From Alphaproteobacteria bacterium (GTDB taxonomy: Bacteria > Pseudomonadota > Alphaproteobacteria > SMXQ01): a DNA stretch of 64,000 nt. Numbering within the stretch: position 1 is the first letter of the stretch; every line of letters starts with the position of its first letter. The stretch spans positions 68,422 to 132,421 of the forward strand of contig JAYQQF010000009.1 of NCBI GenBank assembly GCA_038145705.1, written 5' to 3'. Made by a program: the position numbers and the translations under genes. This document shows positions 40,696 to 63,869 of this stretch, piece by piece. A model generated the notes under the pieces. It ran no database searches and was not told the origin of the DNA. It worked only from the letters and a program-made list of their open reading frames with translations.

Positions 40696-40784
40696 ATTCA
40701 GTCTTCATGTGATCAGGTAAGTACTGCCTTGCGAAAATCTTGCGGGGCCATCTGCAAAAGGGAAAAGTCCAAAAAGGATAGCCA

Positions 40785-45668: not shown

Positions 45669-45865
45669 CGTGTGATGACCTTGGCAAAACTCTCGCGTCT
45701 CAAGTCCGCCCATCCGCAGCGGGTAACGCCCAGAATCTTAGATTGTTTTCAACGAGTCAATTCTTGGTACGCAGGGCACCCATTCTCGGCGCCCCAGGGC
45801 ATGGACATTAAAAATATCCGGCAACAACGGCGATGTATCGAGCCTTATAAGGCGGAGTCAACGAC

Positions 45866-47029: not shown

Positions 47030-47082
47030 TCCGGCTACTGCGATGGCTGGTTTGCCGCCTCTGTATGGCGGAATTTTTGCGC

Positions 47083-48501
47083 ATGGGCGAACGAGCGCGC
47101 CGGAAACCCTATTTACCGTTCCATGTCCAATGGCAGGAAAAGCCAGTTTTGTCGTTACCCAATAGGTTAAGCGCGCTTTGGCTGACGCTTCGTTCGAAGG
47201 TCACCAACAACGGCACGTATTTCAATGGCATCCTAGCCGCTTACGTTTCCCAAGCGTTGCAGATGGTCGCGCAAATCATTCTCATCCCGCTTTATGTAAA
47301 TCATCTTGGCGAACAATACTTCGGTGTTCTGATGATCGTCATGACGACGATGGCCGCGACGAACATCATCGCCACATGGTCTATCGGCGGCATCACCCGG
47401 CGCTTTGGTGATTGTTTCAGCCGTGACGATATTGCAGCGCTTCGTGTGCGCTATGCGGCCGCGAAGTACGTTTTTCTGGGTTTCGGCGGGTCGATGATAC
47501 TCATCGAGACCCTCATCGGCCTGGCGATCTGCGGCTACGTTTATTCCAAGCCTGGCGCACATGTTGACTATGACGTCGTGCTGACCATCATTTTTGCAGC
47601 CGTTAATGTGTTCCTGACTGTCGACAACATGGTCGAGGTGGCGGCACTCACGGCAAAGAATCGCTTGTCTGCCGCATACGCCCTGCAAATCGAGAGCCTT
47701 ATTGTTTTTTTCTTTTGCGTCGTCATGTGGTTCGAATTGGGGGGCGGTCTGGCCGGTGTGTTCCCTTCCATGATTGCCGGTGCGATTTGTTCGCGAATTA
47801 CGGTTTGGTTCTATTGGCGCCGCCAGGGCTTGCAACTGCGATGGAGGTGCCTACGCGATGAGGTTCGCGTCGAGGCGGCACAGCTCTTCGATACGTTGAA
47901 GCGTGGGTATCCAATGTATAGTCTGATTTTCGCCGGTCTTCAGATGGATACGGTTGTGCTCGGGATTCTCGGCAACCCGGTGGTTGTCGGAAAATATGTG
48001 CTCATCTGGAAAATCGCCGAGGTCGGCATTTTTCTTATTTGGCGCTTTTCGGAGAATCTGCAGCCGGAAATTTTTCGAGCTTTCGATACAGGAGATCGAG
48101 AGCGGGTGATTCGAATTTATCGCCTTGGGATCAGGTCAATAGCGGCGATATCGGCTCTGGCCGCGATCGTTTATGCGTTGTTCGGAAATTGGCTGGTAAG
48201 AATTTGGATCGGGAGCGGAGCGGTGCCGGAGGATTGGCTCGCTTATGCGCTTGCCGGGGCGGCGATATTCTGGTTGGGAACGGCGCGGCTATCTCAAATT
48301 GTTGCATTCTCGAGTTCCAATCTCAAGGGACTGATACGGGTATCCGCTGTCGAATTGGTCGCTCGTCTTGCGATTTTCGCGGTCTTGGCGCCTTTCGTCG
48401 GATACCTAGCTCCGTTGATAGCGATCAATGCCGTTCACGCTCTCGGCTGCGCCTATGCCTACGTCAAGATTGCCAGGGCGGGTGTCGCGGGTCGCCGATG
48501 A
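47083..48501 (+). CDS. MOP-superfamily polysaccharide flippase (Wzx-like)
   Basis: About 12 TM helices and an N-terminal Polysacc_synt-like pattern (LRSKVTNNG...YVSQALQ...PLYVNHLGEQYFGV). The start is uncertain: ATG at 47083, or TTG at 47149. Confidence 0.6.
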   Translation: MGERARRKPYLPFHVQWQEKPVLSLPNRLSALWLTLRSKVTNNGTYFNGILAAYVSQALQMVAQIILIPLYVNHLGEQYFGVLMIVMTTMAATNIIATWSIGGITRRFGDCFSRDDIAALRVRYAAAKYVFLGFGGSMILIETLIGLAICGYVYSKPGAHVDYDVVLTIIFAAVNVFLTVDNMVEVAALTAKNRLSAAYALQIESLIVFFFCVVMWFELGGGLAGVFPSMIAGAICSRITVWFYWRRQGLQLRWRCLRDEVRVEAAQLFDTLKRGYPMYSLIFAGLQMDTVVLGILGNPVVVGKYVLIWKIAEVGIFLIWRFSENLQPEIFRAFDTGDRERVIRIYRLGIRSIAAISALAAIVYALFGNWLVRIWIGSGAVPEDWLAYALAGAAIFWLGTARLSQIVAFSSSNLKGLIRVSAVELVARLAIFAVLAPFVGYLAPLIAINAVHALGCAYAYVKIARAGVAGRR

Positions 48502-48550: not shown

Positions 48551-50437
48551 ATGATTAAGCACTTCCGGATCTTTTTGGCTTATTTCGGGCTCGGCTATGG
48601 CCGAGCCATGATCCTGATCGTTTTGGGCAGCGTTGTCGTTGCTATCTTTGAAGCGATGGGGGTTCTGCTCATATTTCCTTTGATGGCTCTTGTCGTGAAT
48701 CCCGCAGAGGCAATCAGCAGTGGCATGATCGGGCGCCTCTATGATTTTGTCGGAAGTCCGCCCATCAAGGTTTTTACTGCTTTATTCAGTGTAATCGTCG
48801 GGGCCGTTTATCTTGGGAGAGCACTGTTCCAGATCGGCTTCACGCGTTGGCAATACCGCCTTATCGCGCGGTGGAAAATTGCGATCTGCTATCGCTTCTT
48901 CTGCAAGTTTCTTGATGCCGATTACGGCTACCACGTACAGAGAAATTCAACGCGGATCATATCGCTGATTACTACTACCGTAGAGTTGGTGTTGAACAAC
49001 TTTATGTATCACATCATTTCCTTGACGGCCCAAATCATCACTGCAACGCTTTTGTGCCTATCGATGATTATTTTCCACCCTCTCGTCACTGTCGTGGTGG
49101 GTATTTTCTTTTTCGTTTTGTTTCAGTTTCAGAATACGTACATCAAGAAACGCATCCGCGATGTCGGTGGTCATGTTGCCCAGTTCAAGGCGGAAAACGC
49201 ATTCGCCATTCAGCAGGCGCTCGGGGCATACAAGGAGACGAAGGTCAATCTCAAGGAAAAGTACTTCCGGACCATGTTCATGAGTGCAAACAAGAGGCTC
49301 ATGGATGCGGAAGGCAGGCTTCTATTTTTCCAGAGCATCCCAGTAACGACGACCGAAATTATTGTTTTGTCTGTCGTTATTATTGCGTTCAACATGATCA
49401 CGGTGGCAGGCGAGACCAGTCAGGCGGTCATGCAGAGCCTCGCCGTCATTGTCGTGACGATGTTCCGTCTGATTCCCACCGTCAATCGCAGTCTAACGTC
49501 GATTACATTCATCAATAGCGCCATCTATCCGCTCGATATGCTGGTCAAGGAAGCCGATGCGGTCGGTTTCCGCGCCGGTGCGACCGACGCCGTCGACGAG
49601 GCAGAACCGCCTGCGATGGTGTTAGAGCAGGCTCTCAGCCTGCGCGGCGTAGGTTATACCTATCCGGGCGCCGCACAGCCGGCCTTGCGCGACATCAACT
49701 TAACCATTCGCAGGGGCGAATTCGTCGGCATCATCGGGCCTTCCGGAGCGGGCAAGACCACTTTGATCGCTGTCTTGCTTGGGTTTCTTCGGGCTGAAAC
49801 CGGCGATTACGACGTTGACGGCAAGCGGATCGACGATCAGCGTATCAGGTCCCTGCGCCACAGCATCGGTTACGTCGATCAACAGCCGTTTATCTTCGAT
49901 GCGACCGTGATGGAAAACGTCGCCTTCGGTGTCGAGAAGGCGGATATCGACCGCAATCGGGTCGAGCAAGCACTCCATCAGGCCCAATTGTGGGATGTGG
50001 TCAGCGGCCTTGAGAGCGGCATCGATAGCTTTGTCGGTGAAAACGGCAAGTGCTTTTCCGGCGGCCAGAGGCAGCGCTTGGCGATCGCGCGCGCCCTTTA
50101 TAAACAGCCGTCATTGCTCATTCTGGACGAAGCGACGTCGGCGTTGGACGTGGATACCGAACAGCGATTGTCCGAAACGATCCGTCACCTCAAGGGCTCC
50201 CTGACCATCATCGTTATCGCTCACCGGCTTTCGACGCTGCAGGCCTGCGACCGCCTTATCATGATGAAGGACGCACGTATTGTTGACGACGGCGCTTATG
50301 AAGAACTGCTGCAGCGCAACGAGACTTTCCGTCACTTGGTATATGCGTCGCAGGTGCGGGGTACAGACGACAGGGACCGCCGCGAGACGCCGATCGATGC
50401 CGTGTTGGGCTGTGACGACAGCCCGGAGGGGCAATAG
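48551..50437 (+). CDS. ABC transporter, fused permease/ATP-binding protein (type I exporter, MsbA-like)
   Basis: A 6-TM domain followed by an NBD with Walker A (GPSGAGKTT), the ABC signature (LSGGQRQRLAIARAL) and Walker B (ILDEATSALD). Confidence 0.85.
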   Translation: MIKHFRIFLAYFGLGYGRAMILIVLGSVVVAIFEAMGVLLIFPLMALVVNPAEAISSGMIGRLYDFVGSPPIKVFTALFSVIVGAVYLGRALFQIGFTRWQYRLIARWKIAICYRFFCKFLDADYGYHVQRNSTRIISLITTTVELVLNNFMYHIISLTAQIITATLLCLSMIIFHPLVTVVVGIFFFVLFQFQNTYIKKRIRDVGGHVAQFKAENAFAIQQALGAYKETKVNLKEKYFRTMFMSANKRLMDAEGRLLFFQSIPVTTTEIIVLSVVIIAFNMITVAGETSQAVMQSLAVIVVTMFRLIPTVNRSLTSITFINSAIYPLDMLVKEADAVGFRAGATDAVDEAEPPAMVLEQALSLRGVGYTYPGAAQPALRDINLTIRRGEFVGIIGPSGAGKTTLIAVLLGFLRAETGDYDVDGKRIDDQRIRSLRHSIGYVDQQPFIFDATVMENVAFGVEKADIDRNRVEQALHQAQLWDVVSGLESGIDSFVGENGKCFSGGQRQRLAIARALYKQPSLLILDEATSALDVDTEQRLSETIRHLKGSLTIIVIAHRLSTLQACDRLIMMKDARIVDDGAYEELLQRNETFRHLVYASQVRGTDDRDRRETPIDAVLGCDDSPEGQ

Positions 50438-51438
50438 TGGCATCGCTCAGGGGAAGCGATTCGGACGAGTTTACCATCGTCGGCGGATTTAAATCCGATG
50501 TGCCGCTACGGCTGTCAGTCGCTATCATCACCTATAACCAACGCGATCGAATTGCAGCTCTTCTCGATGATCTGGTTTCCGAACTGGGGACAATGACCGG
50601 CGTCGAGGTCATCGTCAGCGACGATGGGTCGCAAGACGGAACACAGGATCTGCTGCGGGACTATGCGGCGCGTTGGCCGCATCTAATTTGGGCGATTCTT
50701 GGCAACAGGAACGTCGGCATCTGGGCTAACGCCAACCGGGTTCGGAACGCCTCGAGGGGCGCGTATGTGGCCCCGATGGCCGGCGACGACCGCATTTTGT
50801 CAGGTAAATTCCGTCGTCAGATGGATTTTCTTGATCACCATCCGGATGTCGGAGTGTGCTACCACGATGTCGAAGTTATCTATGATCCGCCCCTGCGGCG
50901 ACCTTGGCTCTTCAGCAGCCGGCATTGCCAGCGGCGGGGAGATGCCGCGACGGTGATTCGCTATGGAGCATTCTTTCCGTGTCAGTCAGTCATGGGGCGC
51001 CGCGCTGTGTTTCAGGCGGCCGCGACGCGGCCAGAGGTCGGAATTTCCGGGGACTCGCTGTTCTATGCCGAGGCTCTGGCGAATACGGGGAGCAAAATCG
51101 ACTTTATCCCTGGGGTATACATGCAATACATCCGCCATGATTCGAACGTTACGACGATGTGGGCTTCGGAGATCGCCGAGGAAAAAAGCGCGGAACTCGG
51201 CATTTTGAGCACCCAGTTTCCGCAATACGAACGGGAACTGCGGTTGCGGCGCTCAGACCATGAATTTATCCTCGCTATTCGCAGTTTGTTTGATGGCCGG
51301 TTGTGGACGGTACTCCGCCACCTAGGCCGGAGTCTGGTATTGGGCCGCTGGACCTGGCCGGCGCTCGGCATCGCATTTGTGGAGGCACGTTTTTTTGTGA
51401 GCCATAGATTAAAGGAAATTCTGCGTGTTGCTGCTTAG
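50437..51438 (+). CDS. glycosyltransferase family 2
   Basis: SVAIITYNQ...SDDGSQDGT...GDD GT-A motifs. GTG start overlapping the upstream stop. Confidence 0.8.
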   Translation: MASLRGSDSDEFTIVGGFKSDVPLRLSVAIITYNQRDRIAALLDDLVSELGTMTGVEVIVSDDGSQDGTQDLLRDYAARWPHLIWAILGNRNVGIWANANRVRNASRGAYVAPMAGDDRILSGKFRRQMDFLDHHPDVGVCYHDVEVIYDPPLRRPWLFSSRHCQRRGDAATVIRYGAFFPCQSVMGRRAVFQAAATRPEVGISGDSLFYAEALANTGSKIDFIPGVYMQYIRHDSNVTTMWASEIAEEKSAELGILSTQFPQYERELRLRRSDHEFILAIRSLFDGRLWTVLRHLGRSLVLGRWTWPALGIAFVEARFFVSHRLKEILRVAA

Positions 51439-52435
51439 CGGTGCGGCTGGCTTCATCGGAAGCCAGATGGTGCGTACGGCAATCGGCCTGGGGCACCGTG
51501 TTGTCGGCCTGGACAAGCTGACCTATGCTGGGTCGACTGATAATGTTGCCGGTTTGCCGGGGGATCGTTTTGAACTGGTGGTGGGCGACATATGTGACGC
51601 GGACTTGGTGCGGGACCTGTTGCACAGGTGTCGGCCGACGGCGGTACTGAATTTTGCGGCGGAAACCCATGTCGACAGGTCCATCGTCTCTTCCGATGCG
51701 TTCGTCCAGACAAATATCATCGGAACCTTGACGCTGCTGAAAAGCTGTCTCTCCTACTACGAAACTTTGTCCGGTCAGACGCGGGCGGATTTCCGCTACG
51801 TGCAGATTTCTACAGATGAGGTTTACGGCTCTCTGGGCGACGAGGGTGTCTTCGATGAAGGAAGTCACTATCGACCGCGTTCTCCCTATGCGGCATCCAA
51901 GGCCGCCGCCGATCATCTGGTCGATTCGTGGCACCACACATACGGCCTGCCGACGATCGTGACGCATTGCTCGAACAATTATGGCCCCCGGCAATTTGCG
52001 GAGAAGCTGATTCCGCATATGATCACCCAAGCGTTGTCAGGCGCCCAGTTGCCGGTTTACGGCAATGGTCGGAACGTCCGCGACTGGATTCATGTCAATG
52101 ATCATTGCGCCGGCGTCATCGCGGCCCTCAGCCGCGGCATACCGGGACAACACTATTGTTTCGGCGGAAATTGCGAATGGCGCAATATCGATCTGGTTAA
52201 CCGTGTTTGCGACATACTCGACGAGATCTGCCCGCGGGGCGACGGGGCATCCTATCGGTCGCAAATCACCTTCGTGACGGATCGCCTTGGGCACGATTTC
52301 CGCTACGCGATCGATTTCGCGCGTGCCCGTGACGAACTGGGATTTTCACCGAGTGTTGATTTCGCGGCCGGGTTGAGGAATACCGTGTCCTGGTACAGCG
52401 AACGCTACAAGAAAGCCGGGAGCGGGACATCATGA
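51425..52435 (+). CDS. rfbB: dTDP-glucose 4,6-dehydratase
   Basis: Motifs GAAGFIGS, YAASKAAAD and THCSNNYGP. GTG start. Confidence 0.9.
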   Translation: MLLLSGAAGFIGSQMVRTAIGLGHRVVGLDKLTYAGSTDNVAGLPGDRFELVVGDICDADLVRDLLHRCRPTAVLNFAAETHVDRSIVSSDAFVQTNIIGTLTLLKSCLSYYETLSGQTRADFRYVQISTDEVYGSLGDEGVFDEGSHYRPRSPYAASKAAADHLVDSWHHTYGLPTIVTHCSNNYGPRQFAEKLIPHMITQALSGAQLPVYGNGRNVRDWIHVNDHCAGVIAALSRGIPGQHYCFGGNCEWRNIDLVNRVCDILDEICPRGDGASYRSQITFVTDRLGHDFRYAIDFARARDELGFSPSVDFAAGLRNTVSWYSERYKKAGSGTS

Positions 52436-53295
52436 AGGGCATATTGCTGGCTGGCGGGAGTGGCACCCGGCTCGCGCCGCTGACATGGAGCATTTCGAAG
52501 CAGCTTCTTCCTATATACAATAAGCCTTTGATTTATTACCCGCTGACGATGCTCATGTATGCGGGTGTGCGTGACATTCTCGTCATTTCGACGCCGCGCG
52601 ATACGCCTATGATCGAACAACTCATGGGCGATGGAAACCAGTTCGGATTGCAACTGAGCTACGCCGTTCAGGAGCATCCTAGGGGAATCGCCGAAGCATT
52701 TTTGATCGCTGAGGAAAGATGCGGCGGTGAACCCGTCTGTCTGGTGCTAGGCGACAATATTTTCCACGGCCATGAATTGCCCGCACTTCTGGATCGGGCC
52801 GCGCGAAATAATGATGGGGCGACTGTTTTCGCCTGCCATGTCTCCAATCCCACGGCCTATGGCGTGGTGACGCTGGATCATGCGGGGCGACCGATCGAAA
52901 TCGAAGAAAAACCCGTTCATCCAAAGTCCGATTTGGCAGTCGCCGGATTGTATTTCTACGATTCTTCGATCTACGATGTAGCCAGAGGATTGCGCCCCTC
53001 GGCGCGCGGAGAACTGGAGATAACAGACGTCAACCGTCATTATCTTACCGAGGGTCGTTTGAGCGTCCAGAAGATGGGCCGTGGCACTGCGTGGTTTGAT
53101 GCGGGTACGTTCGATAGCATGCTGTCGGCCAGTCAATTCGTGCAAATGCTTGAAGCAAAACAGGGCTTGATGATCGGCCTGCCCGAGGAAGTCGCATTCC
53201 GAAAAGGTTTTATTTCCGTTGAAGAGATCACCGAACAGGCCGAGCTGATGAAGAACAGTCCGCTCGGTGATTACTTGAGGAGGTTGCTGGCATAA
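52432..53295 (+). CDS. rfbA: glucose-1-phosphate thymidylyltransferase
   Basis: GGSGTRLAPLT...YDKPMIYYP-like N-terminus. 287 aa. Confidence 0.9.
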   Translation: MKGILLAGGSGTRLAPLTWSISKQLLPIYNKPLIYYPLTMLMYAGVRDILVISTPRDTPMIEQLMGDGNQFGLQLSYAVQEHPRGIAEAFLIAEERCGGEPVCLVLGDNIFHGHELPALLDRAARNNDGATVFACHVSNPTAYGVVTLDHAGRPIEIEEKPVHPKSDLAVAGLYFYDSSIYDVARGLRPSARGELEITDVNRHYLTEGRLSVQKMGRGTAWFDAGTFDSMLSASQFVQMLEAKQGLMIGLPEEVAFRKGFISVEEITEQAELMKNSPLGDYLRRLLA

Positions 53296-53744
53296 TGGCC
53301 TCTCCTGGTTTGGCTCGGCGCGCGTATTTGGTGCCGGTGACGACGATTCAGGACGCAACCGGTACCATCGGCGTCGCGGAAATCGCCGACTTGGCCGGAT
53401 TCGCCGCCAAACGTTTCTATTTTCTCTACGGTGTTAAAGGGCGACGGGGCGGCCACGCGCATAAGCAGTTGCACCAACTGCTGATTGCCCTGACCGGAAC
53501 TGTCGAAATCAAGGTCGAAGCCGGGCCGGAATCGGCGACATTTGTACTGTCCTCGCCGCGTGAAGCCCTGGTCATAAAGCCGATGGTCTGGCGGGATATC
53601 ACGATGAGCCAAGGCGCGGTGTTAGGGGTGCTGGCATCCGAATCTTTCGATGAAGAGGATTACATCCGTGACCACGCTGCCTTTCGCGCCTTGTCGGCGC
53701 CCTCGGAGACCGGCGGCAAAGTACCGTGGACCACGGAACGTTGA
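53295..53744 (+). CDS. dTDP-4-dehydro-6-deoxyglucose 3,4-ketoisomerase (FdtA/QdtA/WxcM cupin family)
   Basis: Cupin core with RGGHAHK..HQ and VWRD, about 149 aa. It sits between rmlA and a DegT-type aminotransferase. Confidence 0.7.
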   Translation: MASPGLARRAYLVPVTTIQDATGTIGVAEIADLAGFAAKRFYFLYGVKGRRGGHAHKQLHQLLIALTGTVEIKVEAGPESATFVLSSPREALVIKPMVWRDITMSQGAVLGVLASESFDEEDYIRDHAAFRALSAPSETGGKVPWTTER

Positions 53745-53745: not shown

Positions 53746-54846
53746 ATGACCAACACGCCCATCCCCTTCGTCGATCTTCGGGCCCAGTATGCGGCGATCG
53801 GGAGTGAAATTCAGCAAGCGATTTCCGCCGTTCTTGAAGGCTGTGACTATATCCTCGGGCCTGAAGTGGAGCGTTTCGAGCGCGAATTTGCCGATTATTG
53901 TGGCGTGCCGTATGCCGTTGGCGTCGGCAATGGCGTCGATGCCTTGACTTTGTCGGCCCGTGCTTTGGGAATCGGTCCGGGTGACGAAGTGATCGTGCCG
54001 GCGATGACTTTTGTTGCTACGGCGCTGGCGTTCAGCCTGGTGGGTGCAAAACCGGTCCTGGTGGATGTTGAGGCCGATACGGCGCTGATCGATCCGGCCC
54101 GGATAGAGGGCGCGATCACTAGCCGCACAAAGGCGATCTGTCCCGTGCACCTGTTCGGTCAATGTGCCGACATGGACGCGGTCAAAGCCGTTGCCGCGCG
54201 CCACGGCCTATCAGTAATTGAAGACGCGGCGCAGGCCCACGGCGCCACATTCAACGGTGTCAGGGCCGGCGCCCTGGGGCACACCGGGTGTTTCAGTTTC
54301 TATCCGGCAAAGAACCTCGGGGCCTATGGCGACGGTGGACTGGTTTCGGTAGCTGATCCAGCGGCTTATGAGCGCCTGTTGGCGCTGCGAAATTACGGCT
54401 CCAAGGTGAAGTATCATCACGATATCCAGGGTACCAACAGCCGCCTTGATGTCATCCAGGCAGCCGCCCTGCGCGTCAAGTTGCGCCATCTTGAAGGCTG
54501 GAATGCGGCCCGCCGAGGCCATGCCCGGCGTTATGATGACGTTCTGGCTGATGTCCCGAATGTCCGCCGCACCCGTTATAGAGACGGCAGCGTTTATCAT
54601 CTCTACGTGGTCAGGGTGCCCGATCGCGATGCCGTTCTGGCGCGACTGCATACGGCTGGAATCGGTGCCGCCATCCATTATCCCTTCGCTGTTCATCAGT
54701 CCGCCTGCTACGCCGATCTGGAATATGGCGAAGGTTCGTTCCCTATGGCCGAAAACTGGGCGGCGAATTGTTTGTCGTTGCCGCTCTACCCGGAATTGCC
54801 GTCGGACGCACCGGAACGGGTCGCAGAGGTTCTCAGGCGCGCATGA
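53746..54846 (+). CDS. dTDP-3-keto-6-deoxyhexose 3-aminotransferase (DegT/DnrJ/EryC1/StrS family, FdtB/QdtB-like)
   Basis: PLP-dependent sugar aminotransferase pattern (DALTLS...IVPAMTF...PVHLFGQ...FSFYPAKNLGAYGDGG). ATG at 53746. Confidence 0.8.
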   Translation: MTNTPIPFVDLRAQYAAIGSEIQQAISAVLEGCDYILGPEVERFEREFADYCGVPYAVGVGNGVDALTLSARALGIGPGDEVIVPAMTFVATALAFSLVGAKPVLVDVEADTALIDPARIEGAITSRTKAICPVHLFGQCADMDAVKAVAARHGLSVIEDAAQAHGATFNGVRAGALGHTGCFSFYPAKNLGAYGDGGLVSVADPAAYERLLALRNYGSKVKYHHDIQGTNSRLDVIQAAALRVKLRHLEGWNAARRGHARRYDDVLADVPNVRRTRYRDGSVYHLYVVRVPDRDAVLARLHTAGIGAAIHYPFAVHQSACYADLEYGEGSFPMAENWAANCLSLPLYPELPSDAPERVAEVLRRA

Positions 54847-55013: not shown

Positions 55014-56396
55014 GTGACGCCGTTTTACAAGAATATTAATCGCCATCCGATGAATGCGCGATATGTCACGTGGCTTCAGGCGTTATATCTGAAGTACTTT
55101 TGCCGTTACGCCGTATTCAGGTGGTGCAAGCCCTGCGTTGTCGGGGCTATAACCTGGGCGACTTACAAGTTTCGCCAGTTGCTGCCCTATTCCGTACATC
55201 TCTTCAGCGGGCAGGGGTGGTGGCTGCTGCTTCCGAAGCAGCTTACGACGATCAGCACATTGACTGTTGCGCGACGGCAAACACTTGAATCCGACGACTT
55301 CATCGAAGTGCTCGGGCCGCGCTCCTTCAACGGGTTCCCATCGGGTGTATCGATCCTGGATCGCTACAAAATACATTCCCCGTTTGTCGGCGCATATGAA
55401 ATCCAGTCGGCCATTGTGATGGGGAACACCAATTTTGTGATCGGCGACTGGGGGATAGCTTACCCCGATATTTTCGATATCGAAAACCATGCCTGTCCCG
55501 CCGAAATACTCAAGGTGATCACCATAAATTTGGAGAAACACACCGGGCGCATCTTGCCAGCATACAAAACGCGGAATCTTCCTTACAAACGCGCCATTTC
55601 CATCCTTAACCAGTGCAGCAGCAATTACATCCATTGGCTGCTGGAAACGCTGCCACAACTGACGCTCATCGACCAAATTCCGGAGTATGACGGCTTGCCC
55701 ATTCTGGTCGATGGTGAGGTTCATCCGAATATCATGGAGTCGCTGCGGCTTTTAAATTCGACTGGCCGGGAAATCATCCCGGTTGCGGCCTATGAGCCTG
55801 TAATGGTCGAGTCCTTGATCGTTATTTCACCGCCAGGGTATGTGCCTTATGAACCGCGCTCGATCGTCACGGGCAAAGTGGGCGAAGTGCGTTATGATGA
55901 ACTTCATTTTTCTCCTATGGCTCTCTGCGCGCTCAGGCAGGCGGCCTGGCGCGCTGTCTCCGCGGCGCCGGGGCCAGACAGGATATACCTGCGCAGGCAG
56001 GGCCTGCACCGTCCCCTGATCAATTCGGGTGAAATAGAAGCCTTGGTGCGGAACTATGGGTTCGAAGTCGTTGTGCCGGATGTGCTCAGTTTTCGGGAAC
56101 AGGTTTCGCTGTTCAGAAACGCAAAGTGCATTATTTCGCCGGTCGGGGCGGGCCTGGGGAACATGATATTTGCACCCAGTGGGTGTAGGGTCGTGTCCAT
56201 GGGCTTTTTCACCACCGTCCCGAATTTCTACTTTTTCGACGGCATCGCGAAAGTTCTGGGACACAGGCACGAATACGTACTGGGTCCCTATATCGACCGC
56301 CCCGGTGACTCCGTGAACCACAGGAGCTACAGCATTGACGTCGATGTCATGAGACGATTATTGGACGAAATTGTCAGTGAAATCGGACGGTCATAA
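55014..56396 (+). CDS. glycosyltransferase family 61 (DUF563) protein
   Basis: NYIHWLLETLP and IYLRRQG motifs typical of DUF563/GT61. GTG start; an alternative ATG at 55050. Confidence 0.55.
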   Translation: MTPFYKNINRHPMNARYVTWLQALYLKYFCRYAVFRWCKPCVVGAITWATYKFRQLLPYSVHLFSGQGWWLLLPKQLTTISTLTVARRQTLESDDFIEVLGPRSFNGFPSGVSILDRYKIHSPFVGAYEIQSAIVMGNTNFVIGDWGIAYPDIFDIENHACPAEILKVITINLEKHTGRILPAYKTRNLPYKRAISILNQCSSNYIHWLLETLPQLTLIDQIPEYDGLPILVDGEVHPNIMESLRLLNSTGREIIPVAAYEPVMVESLIVISPPGYVPYEPRSIVTGKVGEVRYDELHFSPMALCALRQAAWRAVSAAPGPDRIYLRRQGLHRPLINSGEIEALVRNYGFEVVVPDVLSFREQVSLFRNAKCIISPVGAGLGNMIFAPSGCRVVSMGFFTTVPNFYFFDGIAKVLGHRHEYVLGPYIDRPGDSVNHRSYSIDVDVMRRLLDEIVSEIGRS

Positions 56397-56416: not shown

Positions 56417-57592
56417 GTGAAAACACTTCTTGTCGGCACCAGCTTCAGTGCGGCGCCCGTTTACGCAGCCCTCAAGAGAAAAGGGCATCATGTTGCCGTT
56501 TGTGGCGGCATCCCGGGTGATCCCTGCCATCAGTACGCGGACGCATCCATCCACATCGATTATTCCTCACGCGAGGATCTTTTGGCGGCAGTAAAGAGCG
56601 GGGGGTACGACTTCATCGTGCCGACCTGCAATGATACATCGTACATGTCGACCGCGTGGGTCGCGGCCCAACTCGGCTATCCCGGATTCGATTCATTTCG
56701 AACGACCGAAATCCTGCATAACAAACCGCTGTTTCGCGAATTCGCGCTGGGAGTGGGGCTTCCGGTTCCCGCCGCGTATAGGGTTGTCTCCGCCAGCACG
56801 GATGTGGCGGGCAAAGTTCGCTTCCCCGTCCTGGTAAAGCCGTCCGACAGTTTCAGCGGCCGGGGCGTGACCAAGGTCGGGCGACCAGATGAACTAGCGC
56901 TAGCCATCGACGCGGCTTTGGCGGTATCGCACGATGGCAATGCCGTTGTTGAGGACTTTATCGAAGGAACCTTGCACAGCCACTCGGCCTTCATCGTCGA
57001 TCAAAAGATCATTCTCGATTTTTTTGTCGATGAATACTGTACGGTTTACCCCTACCAGGTGAATTGCTCCAATCACCCGTCCGGGCTGGCTGACGACCTG
57101 CGGCGCCAGACTCGCGACGTTATAACGAAGATGATTGTTGCCCTCGGACTATCCGATGGCCTGCTCCATACCCAGTTCATCGCGCAGGACGACAGGATCC
57201 AGATCATTGAGTGTATGCGCCGCGCGCCAGGCGACCTCTACGGACAATTTGTCGGCGCTTCGACCGGGATTGATTACGCCGATTTATATGTGCGCCCCTT
57301 CGTGGGCGAGAAAATTCCGACGGATATTGTCGTCCAGAGCCCAAAACCGATGGCGCGCCACACCATCAGTGTCGATACACCCCAAATCGTCGCAGATTTC
57401 ACCGTTACCGGACCAGCGAAGTCTGTACGCATCATTCCCCTCAAGGAAAGCGGCGAATTATTGGGCGTTGCTCCCTTCGACAAGCTGGCAATCGTTTTTG
57501 CCGAATTCGAAACGATGGATGATATGCTGAACTTGGCGCCCTTTTTCGATCGCTACATTGTCATCGAGCCACTGGACATCCAATGCCGATAA
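56417..57592 (+). CDS. ATP-grasp domain protein (carboxylate-amine ligase)
   Basis: ATP-grasp core (FPVLVKPSDSFSGRGV...VVEDFIEG). GTG start. Confidence 0.7.
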   Translation: MKTLLVGTSFSAAPVYAALKRKGHHVAVCGGIPGDPCHQYADASIHIDYSSREDLLAAVKSGGYDFIVPTCNDTSYMSTAWVAAQLGYPGFDSFRTTEILHNKPLFREFALGVGLPVPAAYRVVSASTDVAGKVRFPVLVKPSDSFSGRGVTKVGRPDELALAIDAALAVSHDGNAVVEDFIEGTLHSHSAFIVDQKIILDFFVDEYCTVYPYQVNCSNHPSGLADDLRRQTRDVITKMIVALGLSDGLLHTQFIAQDDRIQIIECMRRAPGDLYGQFVGASTGIDYADLYVRPFVGEKIPTDIVVQSPKPMARHTISVDTPQIVADFTVTGPAKSVRIIPLKESGELLGVAPFDKLAIVFAEFETMDDMLNLAPFFDRYIVIEPLDIQCR

Positions 57593-58767
57593 TACAGCCC
57601 CCGACACCATTATCGCTCGCGGTCAAGGGCGGACCACGCAAGCTGCGGGTTGCGTTTCTGGGCGGGGGTATAGATTCCGCAGTCGGACAGGTTCATCAGA
57701 TCGCGATCGGCATGGATCAAAGATTCGACTTGGTCGCGGGCTGTTTCAGCCGCGAGATGGAAATCAATCAGTCGAGCGGCGTTGCCTATGGCGTTGATCC
57801 GGATCATGTATACCCTTCGCTCGAAGACCTGATTGCTGCCGAGGCCAAATCAATTGATGCGTTCGTGGTCGTCACGCCGACCGATCAGCATCTGGACCAT
57901 GTGCTCCGCTGCGTAACGGCGGGCATTCCTGTGATCTGCGAAAAGGCCTTGGCACTGGACGATGCCGAAGCGATGAAAATCAAAGAAGCGCTGGATCGCC
58001 ACAACGGCTACTTGGCGGTGACATACAATTATCTTGGATATCCGATGTTGCGCGAACTGAAGGATATCATCGCACGGGGCCAGCTTGGGGCGATCCATCA
58101 GGTGCATGTTGAAATGCCGCAGGAGGGCTTCAGCAAGGTCCGGATTCAAGACGGGAACCCTATCGTTCCGCAGGACTGGAGATTGCATGACGGAAACGTC
58201 CCGACGGTATCGCTCGATCTCGGTGTTCATTTGCACATTATCACCAAATTCCTGACCGATGCCGTTCCATTGGAAACGGTCGCTACGGCGAGTAGCTTTG
58301 GTAACTTTGACAATATCGTCGATAACGTAATTGCGACGGTTCGCTACAGCGGCGACATGGTTACCAGCATCTGGTACGGAAAGGTCGCGTTGGGGTGCCG
58401 AAATGGCTTGAAAGTCAGAGTCTTCGGTGAAGCGGGTGCGGCAGAGTGGTGCCAGGAATATCCCGAAGACCTCCTACTCAGTGACCGTTACGGTCGGCGC
58501 TTCCGGCTGGACCGTGGGCATCCGGATGTGCGCGTGTCTAACGCTGCTCGTTATACTCGTTTCAAGGCGGGGCATCCCACGGGGTTCATTGAGGCGTTCG
58601 CGAACCTTTATGTCGATATAGCCGACCACCTTCTGCGCTTTCATGAAAGCAGGCAATGTGGCGAAACCGAATACGTTTACGGGATCGATGGCGCCATCGA
58701 GGGGTTGCGGCTACTGAGCGCGATTGCCCATTCTGCACGGGAAAAGCGCTGGGTACGCGTGTCCTGA
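57583..58767 (+). CDS. Gfo/Idh/MocA family oxidoreductase
   Basis: N-terminal NAD(P) Rossmann domain (RVAFLGGG) with EKA and a C-terminal alpha/beta domain. Confidence 0.8.
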   Translation: MPIIQPPTPLSLAVKGGPRKLRVAFLGGGIDSAVGQVHQIAIGMDQRFDLVAGCFSREMEINQSSGVAYGVDPDHVYPSLEDLIAAEAKSIDAFVVVTPTDQHLDHVLRCVTAGIPVICEKALALDDAEAMKIKEALDRHNGYLAVTYNYLGYPMLRELKDIIARGQLGAIHQVHVEMPQEGFSKVRIQDGNPIVPQDWRLHDGNVPTVSLDLGVHLHIITKFLTDAVPLETVATASSFGNFDNIVDNVIATVRYSGDMVTSIWYGKVALGCRNGLKVRVFGEAGAAEWCQEYPEDLLLSDRYGRRFRLDRGHPDVRVSNAARYTRFKAGHPTGFIEAFANLYVDIADHLLRFHESRQCGETEYVYGIDGAIEGLRLLSAIAHSAREKRWVRVS

Positions 58768-58921
58768 CCGGCTGCGGCCGATGCTGGAACGAGCGTGCAG
58801 GCCGGCCTTCGGCGCTTGACAGGCTGCCGCCAATATTCTCCACAGGGTCTCGTCGTAGAGATGGGGAACGACGCATCTCGTGCGGCGGCGATTCATAAAT
58901 CAACTTATGCGGTACGGTGTA

Positions 58922-60082
58922 ATGAACAATTTCTATAGCTATAATCCCACCAAGATTCTTTTCGGTAAGGGCATGATTGCGCGAATCGGTGCCGAGCTTC
59001 GCGACGTTTCCAAGATACTGCTGGTCTACGGCGGCGGATCGATCAAGCGGAACGGGGTTTATGATCAGGTTCGGTCCGCGTTGAAGGACTGGAAGGTCGT
59101 CGAATTCGGCGGCGTGGAACCCAACCCTGAATACGAGACCTGCGTCTCGGCCATAAAATTCTCTCGTGCGGAAGGGGTCGACTTCGTTCTAGCCGCCGGC
59201 GGAGGTTCGACGATTGATGCGGCGAAGTTCATCGCCTTGGCCTATGCCGCCGACATCGAAGATTCGTGGCGAATCGTCACCGGCGAGGCGGCGGTGCCTG
59301 CCAAAGTGCTGCCGGTCGGTTGCATCCAGACGCTGCCCGCCAGCGGGGCGGAAATCAACAATGCGTTGGTTCTGAGCCGCAGGTCGATCCGGCGCAAGCT
59401 TTCGTTCAATACCATCGCCCTGTATCCTCGCTTCAGCGTGCTCGATCCCGAGGCAACCATGACCCTGTCGCGTCACCAGACGGCCTTGGGCATGGCCGAT
59501 ATTTTCATGCATGTGCTGGAACAATACATGACCTATCCGGCGGGCGCGCTGCTGCAGGACCGTCAGTCGGAGGCGATACTGTCAACGCTTGTCGAAGTCG
59601 CTCAGCCCCTGCTAGAAAGACTCGATGATTACGATCTGCGCGCGACGGTAGCGTGGTGCGCTGCGCAAACCTCGAATGGCACCATCAATCGTGGCGTGCC
59701 CACCGATTGGGCGACGCATGCAATCGGTCACGAGTTGACGGCGCTTTACGATATTCCCCATGCCCAGACACTCGTCTTGGTCGTCGGCGGAATGTATCTG
59801 CATCAAATCGAACGGAAAAAAGCCAAGCTGGCCCAGTATGGCCGCCGGGTCTGGGGTCTTTCCGGTTCAGATGGCGAAGTTGCCCGTGCGGCAATCGACT
59901 GCACCGTGGCGTTTTTCGATGCGATGGGATTGCCGACGCGATTCTCCGCTTTGGGCATGGATATCGCTGAGGTGGCGCCGGCGGTCCGGCGCCAGTTCGA
60001 GCAAAGCGGATTCCAGCCTATCGGCGAGCACAAGGATATCGACCTGAACGCCATAGATTCAATTCTGGCACTCTGCGCCTAG
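58922..60082 (+). CDS. iron-containing (group III) alcohol dehydrogenase
   Basis: Fe-ADH motifs (GGGS.ID.AK, GHELTALYDIPH). ATG at 58922. Confidence 0.8.
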   Translation: MNNFYSYNPTKILFGKGMIARIGAELRDVSKILLVYGGGSIKRNGVYDQVRSALKDWKVVEFGGVEPNPEYETCVSAIKFSRAEGVDFVLAAGGGSTIDAAKFIALAYAADIEDSWRIVTGEAAVPAKVLPVGCIQTLPASGAEINNALVLSRRSIRRKLSFNTIALYPRFSVLDPEATMTLSRHQTALGMADIFMHVLEQYMTYPAGALLQDRQSEAILSTLVEVAQPLLERLDDYDLRATVAWCAAQTSNGTINRGVPTDWATHAIGHELTALYDIPHAQTLVLVVGGMYLHQIERKKAKLAQYGRRVWGLSGSDGEVARAAIDCTVAFFDAMGLPTRFSALGMDIAEVAPAVRRQFEQSGFQPIGEHKDIDLNAIDSILALCA

Positions 60083-60092: not shown

Positions 60093-61355
60093 GTGGTTCC
60101 ACTTGTTACGCGACAGGGCTTGCCGATTTCGGACCTCAGGTCACTGGTCGGCGAACGCAGAGTCCTGGTCTGGGGAGTCGGCGATATGGCGCTTGATGTC
60201 GTCACCAGCCTGACGAAGGCGGGGTTGCGACCGCGGGCGTTGTTGCACAGCGATATGTCGGTGGTCGGCAGTGACCGCCATGGATTGCCCGTATGGTCGG
60301 CGTCCAGTGTCCTGTCCCCGGCGCAGTCCGATAGAAATTTCATTGTTCTGGCCGCGCCAGCCTATCGGCGAGAGGGTGAGGCTGCCTGCGTCGAAGCCGG
60401 GCTGCGCAAGAGCGCGGACTTTCTTTCGTTCCTGTCCATCCCGCGTCCGCAGGCGATCGTCGAAGTGGCCAACGATTGTTCGTTGCAGTGTCTTGGATGT
60501 CTGCAATCCACCGTCGGTGGTCCGTCTGCGTCCCAGCGGATGTCCGCCGATACGTTTTCGAAGGTGGCAGCCAAATTGGATGCGGACTTGCCCTTGCTCA
60601 GTCATATCGAATTGGCGCTTTGGGGCGAACCGACGCGAAATCCGGATTTGCCTGCAATCATCCGCTTGGCGCAGGCTGTCGCGCCCTGCACGGTGGCGAC
60701 CGGACTGCCGGCCGATGTGTCCTTGGAGTCCGTGGTCAGGGCTGAGCCCGCGCGGCTCGACATCACGGCAATGGGCTTCGGCGAAACCTACGAGGCGCGG
60801 GTGCCCGGCGGGAGCTGGCCTGCCTTCACCCGACAGCTTGCCGTCCTCCGCGAATTGATCGACGATAGCCGACCGTCCACGAGGTTTCAGGTCCGACTTT
60901 ACCGGTGGCGCAACGACCCCTCGGACCTGGTGGAGAAGTGGCGCGGTCTGCTCGGCGACTCGGGCATCCTGCTATCTCCGCAAACGCCCTATGTCATGCC
61001 CTATGACCAGACCCTGGCATATTGTGAAAGCGGGGCGTGGTCGGAGAAGGCTCTGAAGGCTGCGGAAATGCTGCCATGGCACCTGCAGCGCACACTGGAC
61101 GCCTGCCGGGTGGAGCGGGACCGTCCCTGCCTCTCGCAGCGGATTTTCCCGGTCATCAACGTCGATCTCTCGGTCGGGCTGTGCCACCTTTATGCTCAGC
61201 CGCAGGTGGCTGCAAATTTCCTATCAATATCCTGGGATAATTTGCTTCAAGCTCGGCATAAATCGGATTTTTGCCAGCGTTGCCAAAGGTTTGGATTGCA
61301 TAGGCTTGATCTGGATGTTATTAAAAATCAGTATGGTAATCTCCTTGATGTCTAA
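60093..61355 (+). CDS. radical SAM protein with an N-terminal NeuD/PglD-like Rossmann domain and a C-terminal Cys-rich tail (paralog 1)
   Basis: CSLQCLGC (CX3CX2C) about 125 aa from the N-terminus. N-terminal VLVWGVGDMALDV...NFIVLA. C-terminal CQRCQRFGLH. GTG start. Confidence 0.6.
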   Translation: MVPLVTRQGLPISDLRSLVGERRVLVWGVGDMALDVVTSLTKAGLRPRALLHSDMSVVGSDRHGLPVWSASSVLSPAQSDRNFIVLAAPAYRREGEAACVEAGLRKSADFLSFLSIPRPQAIVEVANDCSLQCLGCLQSTVGGPSASQRMSADTFSKVAAKLDADLPLLSHIELALWGEPTRNPDLPAIIRLAQAVAPCTVATGLPADVSLESVVRAEPARLDITAMGFGETYEARVPGGSWPAFTRQLAVLRELIDDSRPSTRFQVRLYRWRNDPSDLVEKWRGLLGDSGILLSPQTPYVMPYDQTLAYCESGAWSEKALKAAEMLPWHLQRTLDACRVERDRPCLSQRIFPVINVDLSVGLCHLYAQPQVAANFLSISWDNLLQARHKSDFCQRCQRFGLHRLDLDVIKNQYGNLLDV

Positions 61356-61375: not shown

Positions 61376-62674
61376 ATGAGTCCTGACAGCCGGGTCCTGA
61401 CCCGACCAGACGCGATGTCGACGATGGGGCGGGAGCAATTCAAGGCTCTCGTGGGCAATCGGAAGATCTTCATTTTCTCGGTGAATCTCGAAGGTGTCGG
61501 TTTCCTGCGCCGCTTTACCCGCATGGGGTTGGACGTCGGTGGCTTCATCGATTCCCGCCCGTTCAAGGACGGCAAGCAGCGCGGCAAGCCGGTGATCTCG
61601 CCGGACGAATTTTTTGCCGGCGAAAACCGCGATGTCTTCGTATTGATCACCGCGAAGCATCGGCAGACGCGGAAATGGGCGATCGACCTTTGCGAGTCCG
61701 CTGGGCTCGCAAAGGGGACCGGGTACATGTATTCGACCATGTTGTGCGATTACTTCCCGACCATCGAAGTCGCGGGCGTGTGCAATCTGCGCTGCATTTC
61801 CTGCAACATGGGGCAGCCCGATGCCAACAGGGGCAAGGGCGTAATGTCGGCGGAAAGATACCGCCAAGTCCTTGAGAAAATGAGTCAGGAAATACCCTTC
61901 CTGAATTCGGTTTATCTCTATTTGTGGGGTGAGCCCTTGCTGAACAAGGAGCTGCCCGAAATCGTTCGCATCACCCGCGAACTGGGCGCCGCATCCGAGA
62001 TTTCGTCCAATCTCGTCGATGGCGCCAGGCTCGAAGCTTTGATCGAAGCACAACCCGATGTGCTCGTGGCGCCCTGTTCGGGTGTCGGCGAAAATTTCGG
62101 CCTTGCCCGCACTGGCGGAACTTGGGACGAATACCGGGACAACCTTTACAAGCTGCGCGAATACCTGGATCGCCACAATGCGGAAACGGTGGTCCGCATC
62201 ACTTATCATATGTACAAGCACAATCTCGAGAAGGACTACGATACGGTCGAAAAGATCGCTAAGGAGCTGGGATACCAGTTCCTCCCCGTTCTGGCCCAGA
62301 TTTTCCCGGAAAAGGTGCTGCGCAACGTCATCAACGGGGAGGCCATTCCGGAAGAGATGCTGCGCGCCAACGAGATGTTGTATTTCCCGATCCATGAGCA
62401 GCTCGCCTATGCGCAGAGCGTCAAGGACAGAAACTGCTTCATGATGAAGGTCTTCCCCAGCATTCGTTGGGACGGTTCCGTCGTGCATTGCAGCAATCTG
62501 ATGAATCCGGTGCTGACGCGAAACTATCTGGACATCTCGCTCGACGACCTTCTCGACCAGCGCGGCGCCAATGGCTTCTGCAACTCGTGCATGGATCACG
62601 GAATGCATCGTTTCTTCGATGTGTCGGCTTCCGTGACGGTGAAAAACGGCCGCCGGGTGCCGCAACGCTCCTGA
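61376..62674 (+). CDS. radical SAM protein with an N-terminal NeuD/PglD-like Rossmann domain and a C-terminal Cys-rich tail (paralog 2)
   Basis: CNLRCISC (CX3CX2C), N-terminal KIFIFSVNLEGVGF...VFVLI and C-terminal CNSCMDHGMH. It is collinear with paralog 1 (LYLWGEPLLNKELPEI versus ELALWGEPTRNPDLPAI). Confidence 0.6.
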   Translation: MSPDSRVLTRPDAMSTMGREQFKALVGNRKIFIFSVNLEGVGFLRRFTRMGLDVGGFIDSRPFKDGKQRGKPVISPDEFFAGENRDVFVLITAKHRQTRKWAIDLCESAGLAKGTGYMYSTMLCDYFPTIEVAGVCNLRCISCNMGQPDANRGKGVMSAERYRQVLEKMSQEIPFLNSVYLYLWGEPLLNKELPEIVRITRELGAASEISSNLVDGARLEALIEAQPDVLVAPCSGVGENFGLARTGGTWDEYRDNLYKLREYLDRHNAETVVRITYHMYKHNLEKDYDTVEKIAKELGYQFLPVLAQIFPEKVLRNVINGEAIPEEMLRANEMLYFPIHEQLAYAQSVKDRNCFMMKVFPSIRWDGSVVHCSNLMNPVLTRNYLDISLDDLLDQRGANGFCNSCMDHGMHRFFDVSASVTVKNGRRVPQRS

Positions 62675-62759: not shown

Positions 62760-63869
62760 ATGAGCACAGATACCCTCAAATCCGTCCTGGCAAGTTTCGA
62801 CCAATGGCAGGCGTCTCCGTTGGAGGTGCGTTCGCATCTGGACGATGTGCTTCGCGGTAAACGCCGTTGCTACGTCCTTGGTCGGAATCACAACAGCGCT
62901 TTCATGGCCGAACGCTTGCCGGTCGCCGGGTTTCTGGACGACTTCGTGGAACCGGGCACCGTCTGGCACGGGTTGCCCGTGCTGCCTTGCAGCGACCTCC
63001 CCACCGGATCGGTCGTTATCAATGCCGTCCTCCTGCGCCGGCCCCATCAGGCTCTGGCGCGGCTGGCTTCCTTGCCGCAGCCTCCCATCGTCGTTCACTA
63101 CGCGGATTTCATGCGTCTGGATCCGGTTAAATTTGTGCCGCCGATCTTCGTGCAGGAGGCGCGGTCCGTCGTCGCCGACCGCGCCGATGCCTTCGCTGCG
63201 TTGGGAGACCGACTGGAAGACGAAGAGTCGCGCGAGGTCATGAAGGATGTCCTTTTGTATCGCCTGACCGGTGATCCCGCCTTTACCAGGGGATATCAGA
63301 TCCGGGACGAGGACGAATATTTTGACCTGCCGTTCGTCCTGCCTCAGGGACCGGTTTTCGTTGACGGCGGTGCCTATCGCGGTGAAACGACCGAATTGTT
63401 CTGCCGGCATTATCCCGATTACAGCTGTGTCCACCTGTTCGAGCCGAATGCCGGCTCTCTGGCGAAGGCAAAGTCGAGGCTCGGCAGCCTGGAACACATC
63501 CACTATTACAACAATGCCGTTGGCGATGTTCGTGCTCATGTTGCGTTCGACGACAGCGCGGAGAATGCATCGCGAATCACCGGAGAAGGCGGTGAGGGTA
63601 TCGAAGCAATGCCCATTGATGAATTGTCCGGCAAAGTCGATTTTATCAAGCTGGATGTCGAAGGCTATGAGACCAAAGCCCTGGTTGGTGCTCGGAGATC
63701 GATCTCTGACTTTCATCCGTCGCTTGCGATCTGCATCTACCATCGCATCACGGACTTTATCGACGTTCCAGGCGTGGTTCTCGCTATCCGTGACGATTAC
63801 CGCTTGTATATTCGCCACTACACCGAGGGTCTGGAAGAGACGGTCATGTATTTCGTGCCGCGGAATTGA
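62760..63869 (+). CDS. FkbM family methyltransferase
   Basis: Methyltransf_21 pattern (FVDGGAYRGETT...VDFIKLDVEGYE). Confidence 0.75.
   Translation: MSTDTLKSVLASFDQWQASPLEVRSHLDDVLRGKRRCYVLGRNHNSAFMAERLPVAGFLDDFVEPGTVWHGLPVLPCSDLPTGSVVINAVLLRRPHQALARLASLPQPPIVVHYADFMRLDPVKFVPPIFVQEARSVVADRADAFAALGDRLEDEESREVMKDVLLYRLTGDPAFTRGYQIRDEDEYFDLPFVLPQGPVFVDGGAYRGETTELFCRHYPDYSCVHLFEPNAGSLAKAKSRLGSLEHIHYYNNAVGDVRAHVAFDDSAENASRITGEGGEGIEAMPIDELSGKVDFIKLDVEGYETKALVGARRSISDFHPSLAICIYHRITDFIDVPGVVLAIRDDYRLYIRHYTEGLEETVMYFVPRN

Follow-up and report, generated by a model that had tools for sequence, protein, structure and literature searches.

A putative amino-sugar N-acylating ATP-grasp ligase in a conserved gene cassette of an alphaproteobacterial glycan operon

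The 64,000-nucleotide stretch of Alphaproteobacteria bacterium DNA analysed here (assembly GCA_038145705.1, contig JAYQQF010000009.1, positions 68,422 to 132,421; the whole stretch is called the window) carries a glycan operon in which the gene for a stand-alone ATP-grasp protein (56417-57592, + strand) lies next to the genes for a deoxythymidine diphosphate (dTDP)-3-amino-3,6-dideoxyhexose. In related genomes this gene was found together with genes for a Gfo/Idh/MocA-family oxidoreductase (GFO) and an FkbM-family methyltransferase. The three form a well-defined, widespread candidate cassette of a known kind, that of ATP-grasp amide ligases that decorate glycans. We put at about even the chance that the ATP-grasp protein carries out an ATP-dependent, coenzyme A (CoA)-independent N-acylation of the dTDP-amino sugar.

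The ATP-grasp protein and its amino-sugar neighbours

The open reading frame (ORF) starts with GTG and encodes 391 amino acids. The protein passed the Pfam threshold of ATP-grasp_4 (PF13535; 33.4 bits for a cut-off of 27) and also scored above that of the D-Ala-D-Ala ligase C-terminal family (PF07478; 30.7 bits for a cut-off of 24). An identical protein is on record, the next relatives share 80% and then 60% identity, and the homologues number more than 1000, with the best 120 all scoring above ~427 bits. An AlphaFold2 model (mean predicted local distance difference test score of 91, predicted template-modelling score of 0.89) showed the three-domain ATP-grasp fold. Its Foldseek matches were the uncharacterised structure 4dim, PurT, the L-amino-acid ligases BL00235 and RizA, biotin carboxylase and PurK, all with template-modelling (TM) scores of 0.74-0.82, a probability of 1.00 and 15-19% identity; the TM score was 0.77-0.79 for PurT and 0.79-0.82 for the L-amino-acid ligases, at 16-17% identity for the latter. 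When the family profile was searched against the Protein Data Bank (PDB), 4dim was the best match (E = 1e-28), followed by BL00235 (3vot, 1e-19), carbamoyl-phosphate synthetase (2e-17) and PurT (3e-12). The NCBIfam equivalog models for PurT were missed (NF006766, 46.9 bits versus a cut-off of 339; TIGR01142, 44 bits versus 502), and the gap between 46.9 and 339 bits indicates that the protein is not a PurT.

In an alignment of 26 family members, residues K141, E179, Q253, E265 and R269 were invariant, K141 lying in an LVKP motif and Q253 aligning with the glutamine of the carbamoyl-phosphate synthetase motif MNVQF. By this alignment, K141 is predicted to be the ATP-binding lysine, E179 the hinge glutamate, Q253 and E265 metal ligands, and R269 the acyl-phosphate arginine. 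A C29/C37-H38/C71-N72-D73 patch is conserved too and might, with D273, line a nucleotide-sugar site. PurT, the L-amino-acid ligases and 4dim have the same three-domain architecture, with the ATP and metal residues kept, and the chemistry of PurT and the L-amino-acid ligases, in which an acyl-phosphate intermediate is attacked by an amine, is presumably common to the window enzyme. Their contexts differ, as the known enzymes serve purine or dipeptide synthesis whereas the window ligase is encoded among glycan biosynthesis genes. As both the fold and the residues for ATP, metal and acyl phosphate have been kept, the protein appears to be an intact carboxylate-amine ligase. Judged from its sequence and its model, it is a real ATP-using acid-amine ligase of a large, little-studied family, with predicted catalysis, and homology does not reveal which substrates it uses.

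The genes from a family 2 glycosyltransferase (GT2) to FkbM are arranged in one closely packed + strand operon, as follows (SAM, S-adenosylmethionine).

50437-51438, + strand: GT2 glycosyltransferase
51425-52435, + strand: RmlB, dTDP-glucose 4,6-dehydratase (Pfam GDP_Man_Dehyd 257 bits, Epimerase 204 bits)
52432-53295, + strand: RmlA, glucose-1-phosphate thymidylyltransferase (Pfam NTP_transferase 228 bits)
53295-53744, + strand: FdtA/QdtA-type dTDP-4-keto-6-deoxyhexose 3,4-ketoisomerase (Pfam FdtA 113.9 bits, cut-off 23)
~53746-54846, + strand: DegT, pyridoxal phosphate-dependent sugar 3-aminotransferase, FdtB/QdtB/DesV-like (Pfam DegT 391 bits)
55014-56396, + strand: GT61-family glycosyltransferase, candidate transferase for the modified sugar (Pfam Glyco_transf_61 75.8 bits)
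56417-57592, + strand: ATP-grasp carboxylate-amine ligase, proposed amino-sugar N-acylating enzyme (Pfam, fold, synteny)
57583-58767, + strand: GFO, Gfo/Idh/MocA NAD(P) oxidoreductase (Pfam GFO_IDH_MocA and C-terminal domains)
58880-60082 (start probably 58922), + strand: Fe-ADH, iron-dependent alcohol dehydrogenase, YqhD-like (Pfam Fe-ADH 133 bits)
60093-61355 (start probably 60186), + strand: divergent radical-SAM protein 1 (CX3CX2C motif CSLQCLGC)
61376-62674, + strand: radical-SAM protein 2 (Pfam Radical_SAM 40.9 bits; CX3CX2C motif CNLRCISC)
62760-63869, + strand: FkbM-family SAM methyltransferase (Pfam Methyltransf_21 38.9 bits)

All four enzymes of the Fdt/Qdt pathway, RmlA, RmlB, the 3,4-ketoisomerase and the 3-aminotransferase, are present in the window. 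In the PDB, the ketoisomerase matched QdtA (E = 2e-18) and FdtA (6e-17) almost equally. The aminotransferase, for which the start (366 amino acids) was taken from the gene call in locus L002, matched 7b0d (1e-107), DesV (2oga, 2e-107) and QdtB (3frk, 4e-97), and DesV and QdtB, among its top solved relatives, are 3-aminotransferases. Therefore, the expected product is dTDP-3-amino-3,6-dideoxygalactose (dTDP-Fuc3N) or its gluco counterpart (dTDP-Qui3N), as a first-pass annotation of this DNA had proposed. Homology shows for the four enzymes together a route to a dTDP-3-amino-3,6-dideoxyhexose, and it cannot tell the galacto from the gluco configuration. The position that the same annotation gave to the ATP-grasp gene, two genes downstream and followed by oxidoreductases, was also correct, the order being DegT, GT61, ATP-grasp, GFO and Fe-ADH.

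In the known pathways, the slot after FdtB/QdtB, with the same upstream rmlA, rmlB, fdtA/qdtA and fdtB/qdtB, is filled by FdtC/QdtC, which have a left-handed beta-helix (LbH) fold and use an acyl-CoA thioester, whereas the window enzyme has the ATP-grasp fold and would use ATP. The first-pass annotation had seen no FdtC/QdtC-type N-acetyltransferase in the window, and both searches that were made bear this out. Pfam scans of 56 ORFs from the window detected no Hexapep, GNAT or Formyl_trans domain, and phmmer (--max) with four LbH seeds (LpxA, LacA, CysE and PglD) gave no match in the window among all six-frame ORFs; for a few housekeeping ORFs within the first 16 kb, phmmer was the only test applied. 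The phmmer search was positive for its control, a LacA-like gene in locus L031 (E = 2.5e-16). A home-made regular expression for hexapeptide repeats did not rank a genuine LbH ORF above the background, and phmmer and Pfam were used instead. Metagenomic contigs identical to the window (L001, with 0 mismatches over 10158 bases, and L061/L062) reach ~7.3 kb past its right end, where they encode an IF-2B-family protein, a fusion of aldolase_II and a short-chain dehydrogenase/reductase (SDR), an SDR, a small FkbM, TauE and DmsC. No LbH gene was found in these ~7.3 kb, the extension of the search that the annotation had called for, and an FdtC/QdtC neighbour was seen on neither side.

Conservation of the cassette across genomes

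Species-representative genomes were scanned with the family alignment, which yielded 55 species-level loci (37-55% identity) from beta-, gamma-, alpha- and epsilon-proteobacteria, one Omnitrophota metagenome-assembled genome and Candidatus Adiutrix, and the window proteins were then searched against the six-frame ORFs of these loci. In 45 of the 55, an orthologous GFO was encoded directly downstream of the ATP-grasp gene on the same strand; the Rhodobacterales variants carried a divergent GFO instead. Within 6 kb of the ATP-grasp gene, DegT was detected in 43 loci (31 of the 36 with at least 6 kb of flank on both sides), FkbM in 42, FdtA in 33 and GT61 in 18, and the five genes ATP-grasp, GFO, FkbM, DegT and FdtA were all together in 22. 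An LbH gene was present in only one locus, 8 kb away; the other 54 related loci, like the window and the ~7.3 kb to its right, lack FdtC/QdtC-type genes. In the minimal cassette of Nitrosomonas europaea, Wzm, Wzt, ATP-grasp, GFO, FkbM, FdtA, DegT, GT61 and GT61 follow each other with no other gene within the run; Pseudomonas mosselii also has a minimal cassette, and the same core was found on a Rhizobium plasmid. A literature search returned nothing on an ATP-grasp/GFO/FkbM amino-sugar cassette.

In the window, the start of GFO overlaps the 3' end of the ATP-grasp gene by 10 nucleotides, suggesting possible translational coupling of the two. FkbM (NCBIfam fkbM_fam, 53.5 bits versus 37.7; PDB 2py6, E = 6e-21) is the third constant member of the cassette, and is here parted from GFO by an accessory insert; enzymes of the FkbM family are typically O-methyltransferases. 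The nearest structures to GFO were 3v5n and 3dty, both uncharacterised, from a clade that includes a Paracoccus scyllo-inositol/L-glucose dehydrogenase, which oxidises ring alcohols and C1 hemiacetals (PMC5969746). GFO may carry out a redox step on the acyl group or on the ring, or may make an aldonic acid.

The accessory insert consists of Fe-ADH, which scored 398.6 bits against NCBIfam PRK15138, under the cut-off of 645, and the two radical-SAM proteins, the first of which reached only 19.2 bits with Pfam Radical_SAM, under threshold, with weak NCBIfam radical-SAM/SPASM matches. Both radical-SAM proteins are paralogues with a common N-terminal extension of ~120 amino acids (E = 9e-6), and the match of this extension to the FkbM N-terminus was marginal (E = 0.03). 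A PglD/NeuD-like nucleotide-sugar domain was considered for the N-termini of FkbM and the radical-SAM proteins, and the PglD match was not significant. Homologues of Fe-ADH adjoin the cassette in loci L017, L034 and L042, those of radical-SAM protein 2 lie beside it in L017, L021, L034 and L042, and one of radical-SAM protein 1 is present in L021; other radical-SAM genes occur in L010 and L031. Fe-ADH and the two radical-SAM genes thus look like an optional tailoring module found in few loci.

A recurrent acid-making gene was not found when 841 unassigned neighbour ORFs were clustered de novo, the clusters containing only glycosyltransferases, Wzm, RmlC/D and enterobacterial flagellar flanks. 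Individual inserts in related loci encode radical-SAM proteins, GT2 and GT41. The Sulfurimonas insert (L031, 12278-17184) has four genes, which lie between GFO and DegT and encode a GT2-radical-SAM fusion, a shikimate/gluconate-kinase-family protein, a 6-phosphogluconate dehydrogenase and a putative cyclase. They are a possible hint that GFO handles an aldose or aldonate, or a coincidence.

A separate branch was found in enterobacteria. Kosakonia, Pantoea, Enterobacter and Pectobacterium (37-39% identity) carry DegT, ATP-grasp, GFO and FkbM without FdtA, the DegT being DesI-like in Enterobacter, Kosakonia and Pantoea. That of Enterobacter pasteurii is nearest to DesI, a dTDP-4-keto-6-deoxyglucose 4-aminotransferase (E = 3e-69). 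In this species (L058, 2938-13419), the cassette is located between fliC and fliA, after the gene for a 1116-amino-acid protein with methyltransferase, TPR and GT41 parts, an arrangement that by its gene content is a flagellin glycosylation island. Because the family accompanies routes to 3-amino as well as 4-amino 6-deoxyhexoses, a sugar amine fits as its acceptor, and the distribution as a whole fits a family that follows sugar amines, and neither one ring position nor polysaccharide export. The fliC-fliA island also encodes a 278-amino-acid flagellin and a 468-amino-acid protein, and several Kosakonia and Enterobacter loci have two proteins (~1200 amino acids each) of the same kind as the 1116-amino-acid one (the enterobacterial cassette loci are L047-L060).

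Proposed N-acylation of the amino sugar and alternative readings

In the N-acylation proposed here, the ATP-grasp ligase would first convert a free carboxylic acid into its acyl phosphate and then pass the acyl group on to the 3-amino group, giving an N-acyl sugar with neither acyl-CoA nor an LbH transferase. GFO would then oxidise or reduce, and FkbM would O-methylate, with the acyl group or the sugar ring as the target; Fe-ADH and the two radical-SAM enzymes would add an optional extra tailoring, and GT61 would transfer the finished sugar. Candidate acyl donors are small hydroxy or keto acids, amino acids and one-carbon acids. In a bolder version, GFO would itself supply an aldonic acid for the ligase to join to the amine, and in this operon the radical-SAM enzymes and Fe-ADH would then deoxygenate that acid; this version is drawn from the nearest structural clade of GFO, as this includes the C1-oxidising L-glucose/scyllo-inositol dehydrogenase. 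Extended to the related loci, the proposal is that ATP-grasp, GFO and FkbM form a portable cassette that N-acylates 3- or 4-amino nucleoside diphosphate (NDP)-6-deoxyhexoses, replacing the LbH enzymes, and that hitherto undescribed N-acyl, O-methyl amino-deoxyhexoses are borne on O-polysaccharides and flagellins across Proteobacteria. For this wider claim we put the chances somewhat short of even.

The closest precedent, by analogy and of a genetic kind only, is the type B flagellin locus of Clostridioides difficile RT027, in which the terminal Fuc3N bears taurinyl-Ala-Gly as the acyl group on N-3 (PMC5207245). The locus (CDR20291_0244-0247) encodes an FdtB homologue, an ATP-grasp_4 protein, a FemAB-like protein and an ornithine cyclodeaminase (PMC5207245, PMC5207246). 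A mutant in the ATP-grasp gene stops at the trisaccharide, the capped sugar being lost, and the authors leave the exact roles of the genes undetermined (PMC5207246, PMC5207245). According to the locus description, C. difficile and the window are alike in that an ATP-grasp_4 (PF13535) gene lies beside that of an FdtB-type 3-aminotransferase, in the lack of an FdtC-type acetyltransferase, and in the 3-amino-3,6-dideoxyhexose, which in C. difficile carries a non-acetyl amide. The C. difficile locus differs in its Gram-positive host, in its FemAB-like and ornithine-cyclodeaminase partners and in having no FdtA, GFO or FkbM; no FemAB-like or ornithine cyclodeaminase family was detected in the scanned window or in the cassettes.

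The suggestion made in the first-pass annotation, that the amino sugar is amide-linked to an acid, gains from this precedent, from the presence of DegT in 43 of the 55 loci and from the pairing of the family with 4-aminotransferases as well. Its further suggestion, of an acid made on the spot by the oxidoreductases, holds at most in part: GFO is a near-constant partner, but Fe-ADH and the radical-SAM genes are optional, and the minimal cassette encodes no obvious acid-making enzyme.

That lack also weighs against N-acylation by the ligase, and so do several other points. The evidence in favour consists of synteny and fold, and in about five loci for which the flanks are long, ATP-grasp and GFO come with no aminotransferase within 6 kb; L016, L018, L037 and L042 have none in a flank of ~6-10 kb, and that of L015 is ~9 kb away. 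A simple N-acylation would leave the near-constant GFO partner unexplained. As rmlA and rmlB are often elsewhere in related genomes, the acyltransferase could be elsewhere too. A novel transferase could also be hidden among four operon ORFs of 326-478 amino acids (38894-39892, 44889-45869, 45866-47029 and 47065-48501), for which no Pfam family was found even at E = 1. In C. difficile, moreover, it was the FemAB-like protein that the authors proposed as the amine-acylating candidate (PMC5207245).

The FemAB-like candidate and the four ORFs without family could also be taken to favour a synthesis of precursors, in which the ligase, GFO and FkbM build a dipeptide or a modified acid that is attached by another transferase or used elsewhere, and the closest functionally named relatives of the ligase, the L-amino-acid ligases, do join two free amino acids. 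We consider this unlikely, since no gene for such a transferase is left over in the minimal cassette of N. europaea and many other species, and the four ORFs have no counterparts among the 55 related loci. It is also conceivable that the amine stays free, as free amino sugars occur in glycans, or is acetylated by an unlinked housekeeping enzyme, with the trio serving a chain-terminating or regulatory modification in ABC-transporter-dependent export. Many cassettes do follow Wzm/Wzt or a fused ABC exporter directly, but the same trio is found in flagellin glycosylation islands without a polysaccharide exporter, and it is physically interleaved with fdtA and degT, which makes such a role improbable.

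Two further alternatives concern the chemistry of the ligase. A PurT/PurK-like enzyme could N-formylate the sugar with formate and ATP, or N-carboxylate it with bicarbonate, FkbM then giving a methyl carbamate; this would be a special case of the N-acylation with a specific donor. PurT is among the top structural matches, an E-x3-R-x3-D stretch in the active site presumably resembles the PurT/PurK motif, 3-formamido-3,6-dideoxyhexoses are known sugars, and no N10-formyl-tetrahydrofolate transferase was detected in any scanned window ORF. However, the protein falls far short of the PurT equivalog, the L-amino-acid ligase and carbamoyl-phosphate synthetase outscore PurT in the profile search, the GFO partner is left unexplained, and we know of no methyl-carbamate sugar in polysaccharides; we give one-carbon chemistry little credence. 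In the other alternative the polarity is reversed: a carboxyl group of the glycan, from a uronic or ulosonic acid, would be amidated with a small amine and the amino sugar handled separately. This option had been listed in the first-pass annotation, and Cj1438 of Campylobacter jejuni, whose ATP-grasp domain amidates glucuronic acid in the HS:2 capsule, resembles the proposed window enzyme in making an amide on a surface glycan, but with the carboxyl given by the sugar (PMC11800379). The few related loci without a nearby aminotransferase would also suit it. The uronic-acid option is nevertheless unsupported, because no UDP-sugar 6-dehydrogenase (UDPG_MGDP_dh) was detected among those operon ORFs (28.8-64 kb) that were scanned and because the family tracks aminotransferases, co-occurring with DegT and switching between 3- and 4-aminotransferases. 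In addition, the minimal cassettes carry no acid-sugar genes, and the ATP-grasp protein is not fused to a glycosyltransferase. We therefore regard the reversed polarity as very improbable.

Should the N-acylation proposal be correct, the ATP-grasp cassette would represent a second, thioester-independent route of N-acylation. To our knowledge, every biochemically characterised N-acylation of an NDP-amino sugar uses an acyl-CoA or formyl-tetrahydrofolate transferase. A function would also be available for more than 1000 proteins labelled 'ATP-grasp domain protein' or mislabelled as PurT or biotin carboxylase, new sugar structures would be predicted in nitrifiers, rhizobia, pseudomonads and enterobacterial flagellins, and it would be easier to assign a role to the ATP-grasp_4 gene in the type B flagellin locus of C. 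difficile. Serotype and recognition by phages and by the immune system depend to a large degree on the N-acyl groups of amino-deoxyhexoses.

Related glycan systems and the remainder of the operon

The viosamine genes of Pseudomonas syringae (vioA, vioB, vioR, vioS and vioM) give an N-(hydroxyacyl), O-methyl amino-6-deoxyhexose on flagellin with a set that is analogous in function, comprising an aminotransferase, an acylating enzyme, an oxidoreductase and a methyltransferase. That system uses acyl building of the acyl carrier protein/CoA type and an LbH transferase, and its proteins are not homologous to ATP-grasp, GFO or FkbM, so that the resemblance may serve as a lead, not as a test. In Shewanella, the ATP-grasp_4 protein SfmE is required for full flagellin modification (PMC3765264). 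A distant ATP-grasp protein (25% identity) was also found in a glycan cluster of the Brachyspira hyodysenteriae plasmid pBhyoB78 (L065, 891-15970), which in addition encodes DegT, an acetyltransferase, a methyltransferase, a radical-SAM/SPASM protein and three more 'ATP-grasp fold amidoligase' proteins beside rfbACD.

Directly past FkbM (L061 11229-14415, equivalent to window 63988 to ~67170+), an IF-2B/MtnA-like isomerase and a 699-amino-acid fusion of a class II aldolase with an SDR are encoded. We take this pair to resemble the 5-deoxyribose or 'dihydroxyacetone phosphate shunt' salvage of 5'-deoxyadenosine, which would come from the two adjacent radical-SAM enzymes; alternatively, the same genes could presumably encode a rhamnulose-1-phosphate aldolase/lactaldehyde dehydrogenase, which would make lactate.

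The GC content drops at ~40 kb, from 0.60-0.69 (1-40000) to 0.53-0.59 (~40000-64000), and the part of the operon with the ATP-grasp cassette looks horizontally acquired. A class I methyltransferase at 40785-41453 was considered as an amine N,N-dimethylating enzyme of the TylM1/DesVI type and rejected, as its PDB matches were generic and included neither TylM1 nor DesVI.

A NusG paralogue (28236-28733) heads the single + strand glycan operon, which extends from 28.8 kb to past the end of the window. Its first part (28236-40700) encodes two epimerase/dehydratases, SDRs, methyltransferases, a fusion of a cytidylyltransferase-like protein and a PfkB kinase (30814-32385), thiamine pyrophosphate-dependent E1 alpha and beta subunits (32386-34426), a Zn-finger C-methyltransferase (34426-35619) and split transketolase N and C genes (37165-38882). 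This gene content suggests a second unusual sugar pathway, for a branched-chain or C-methylated sugar.

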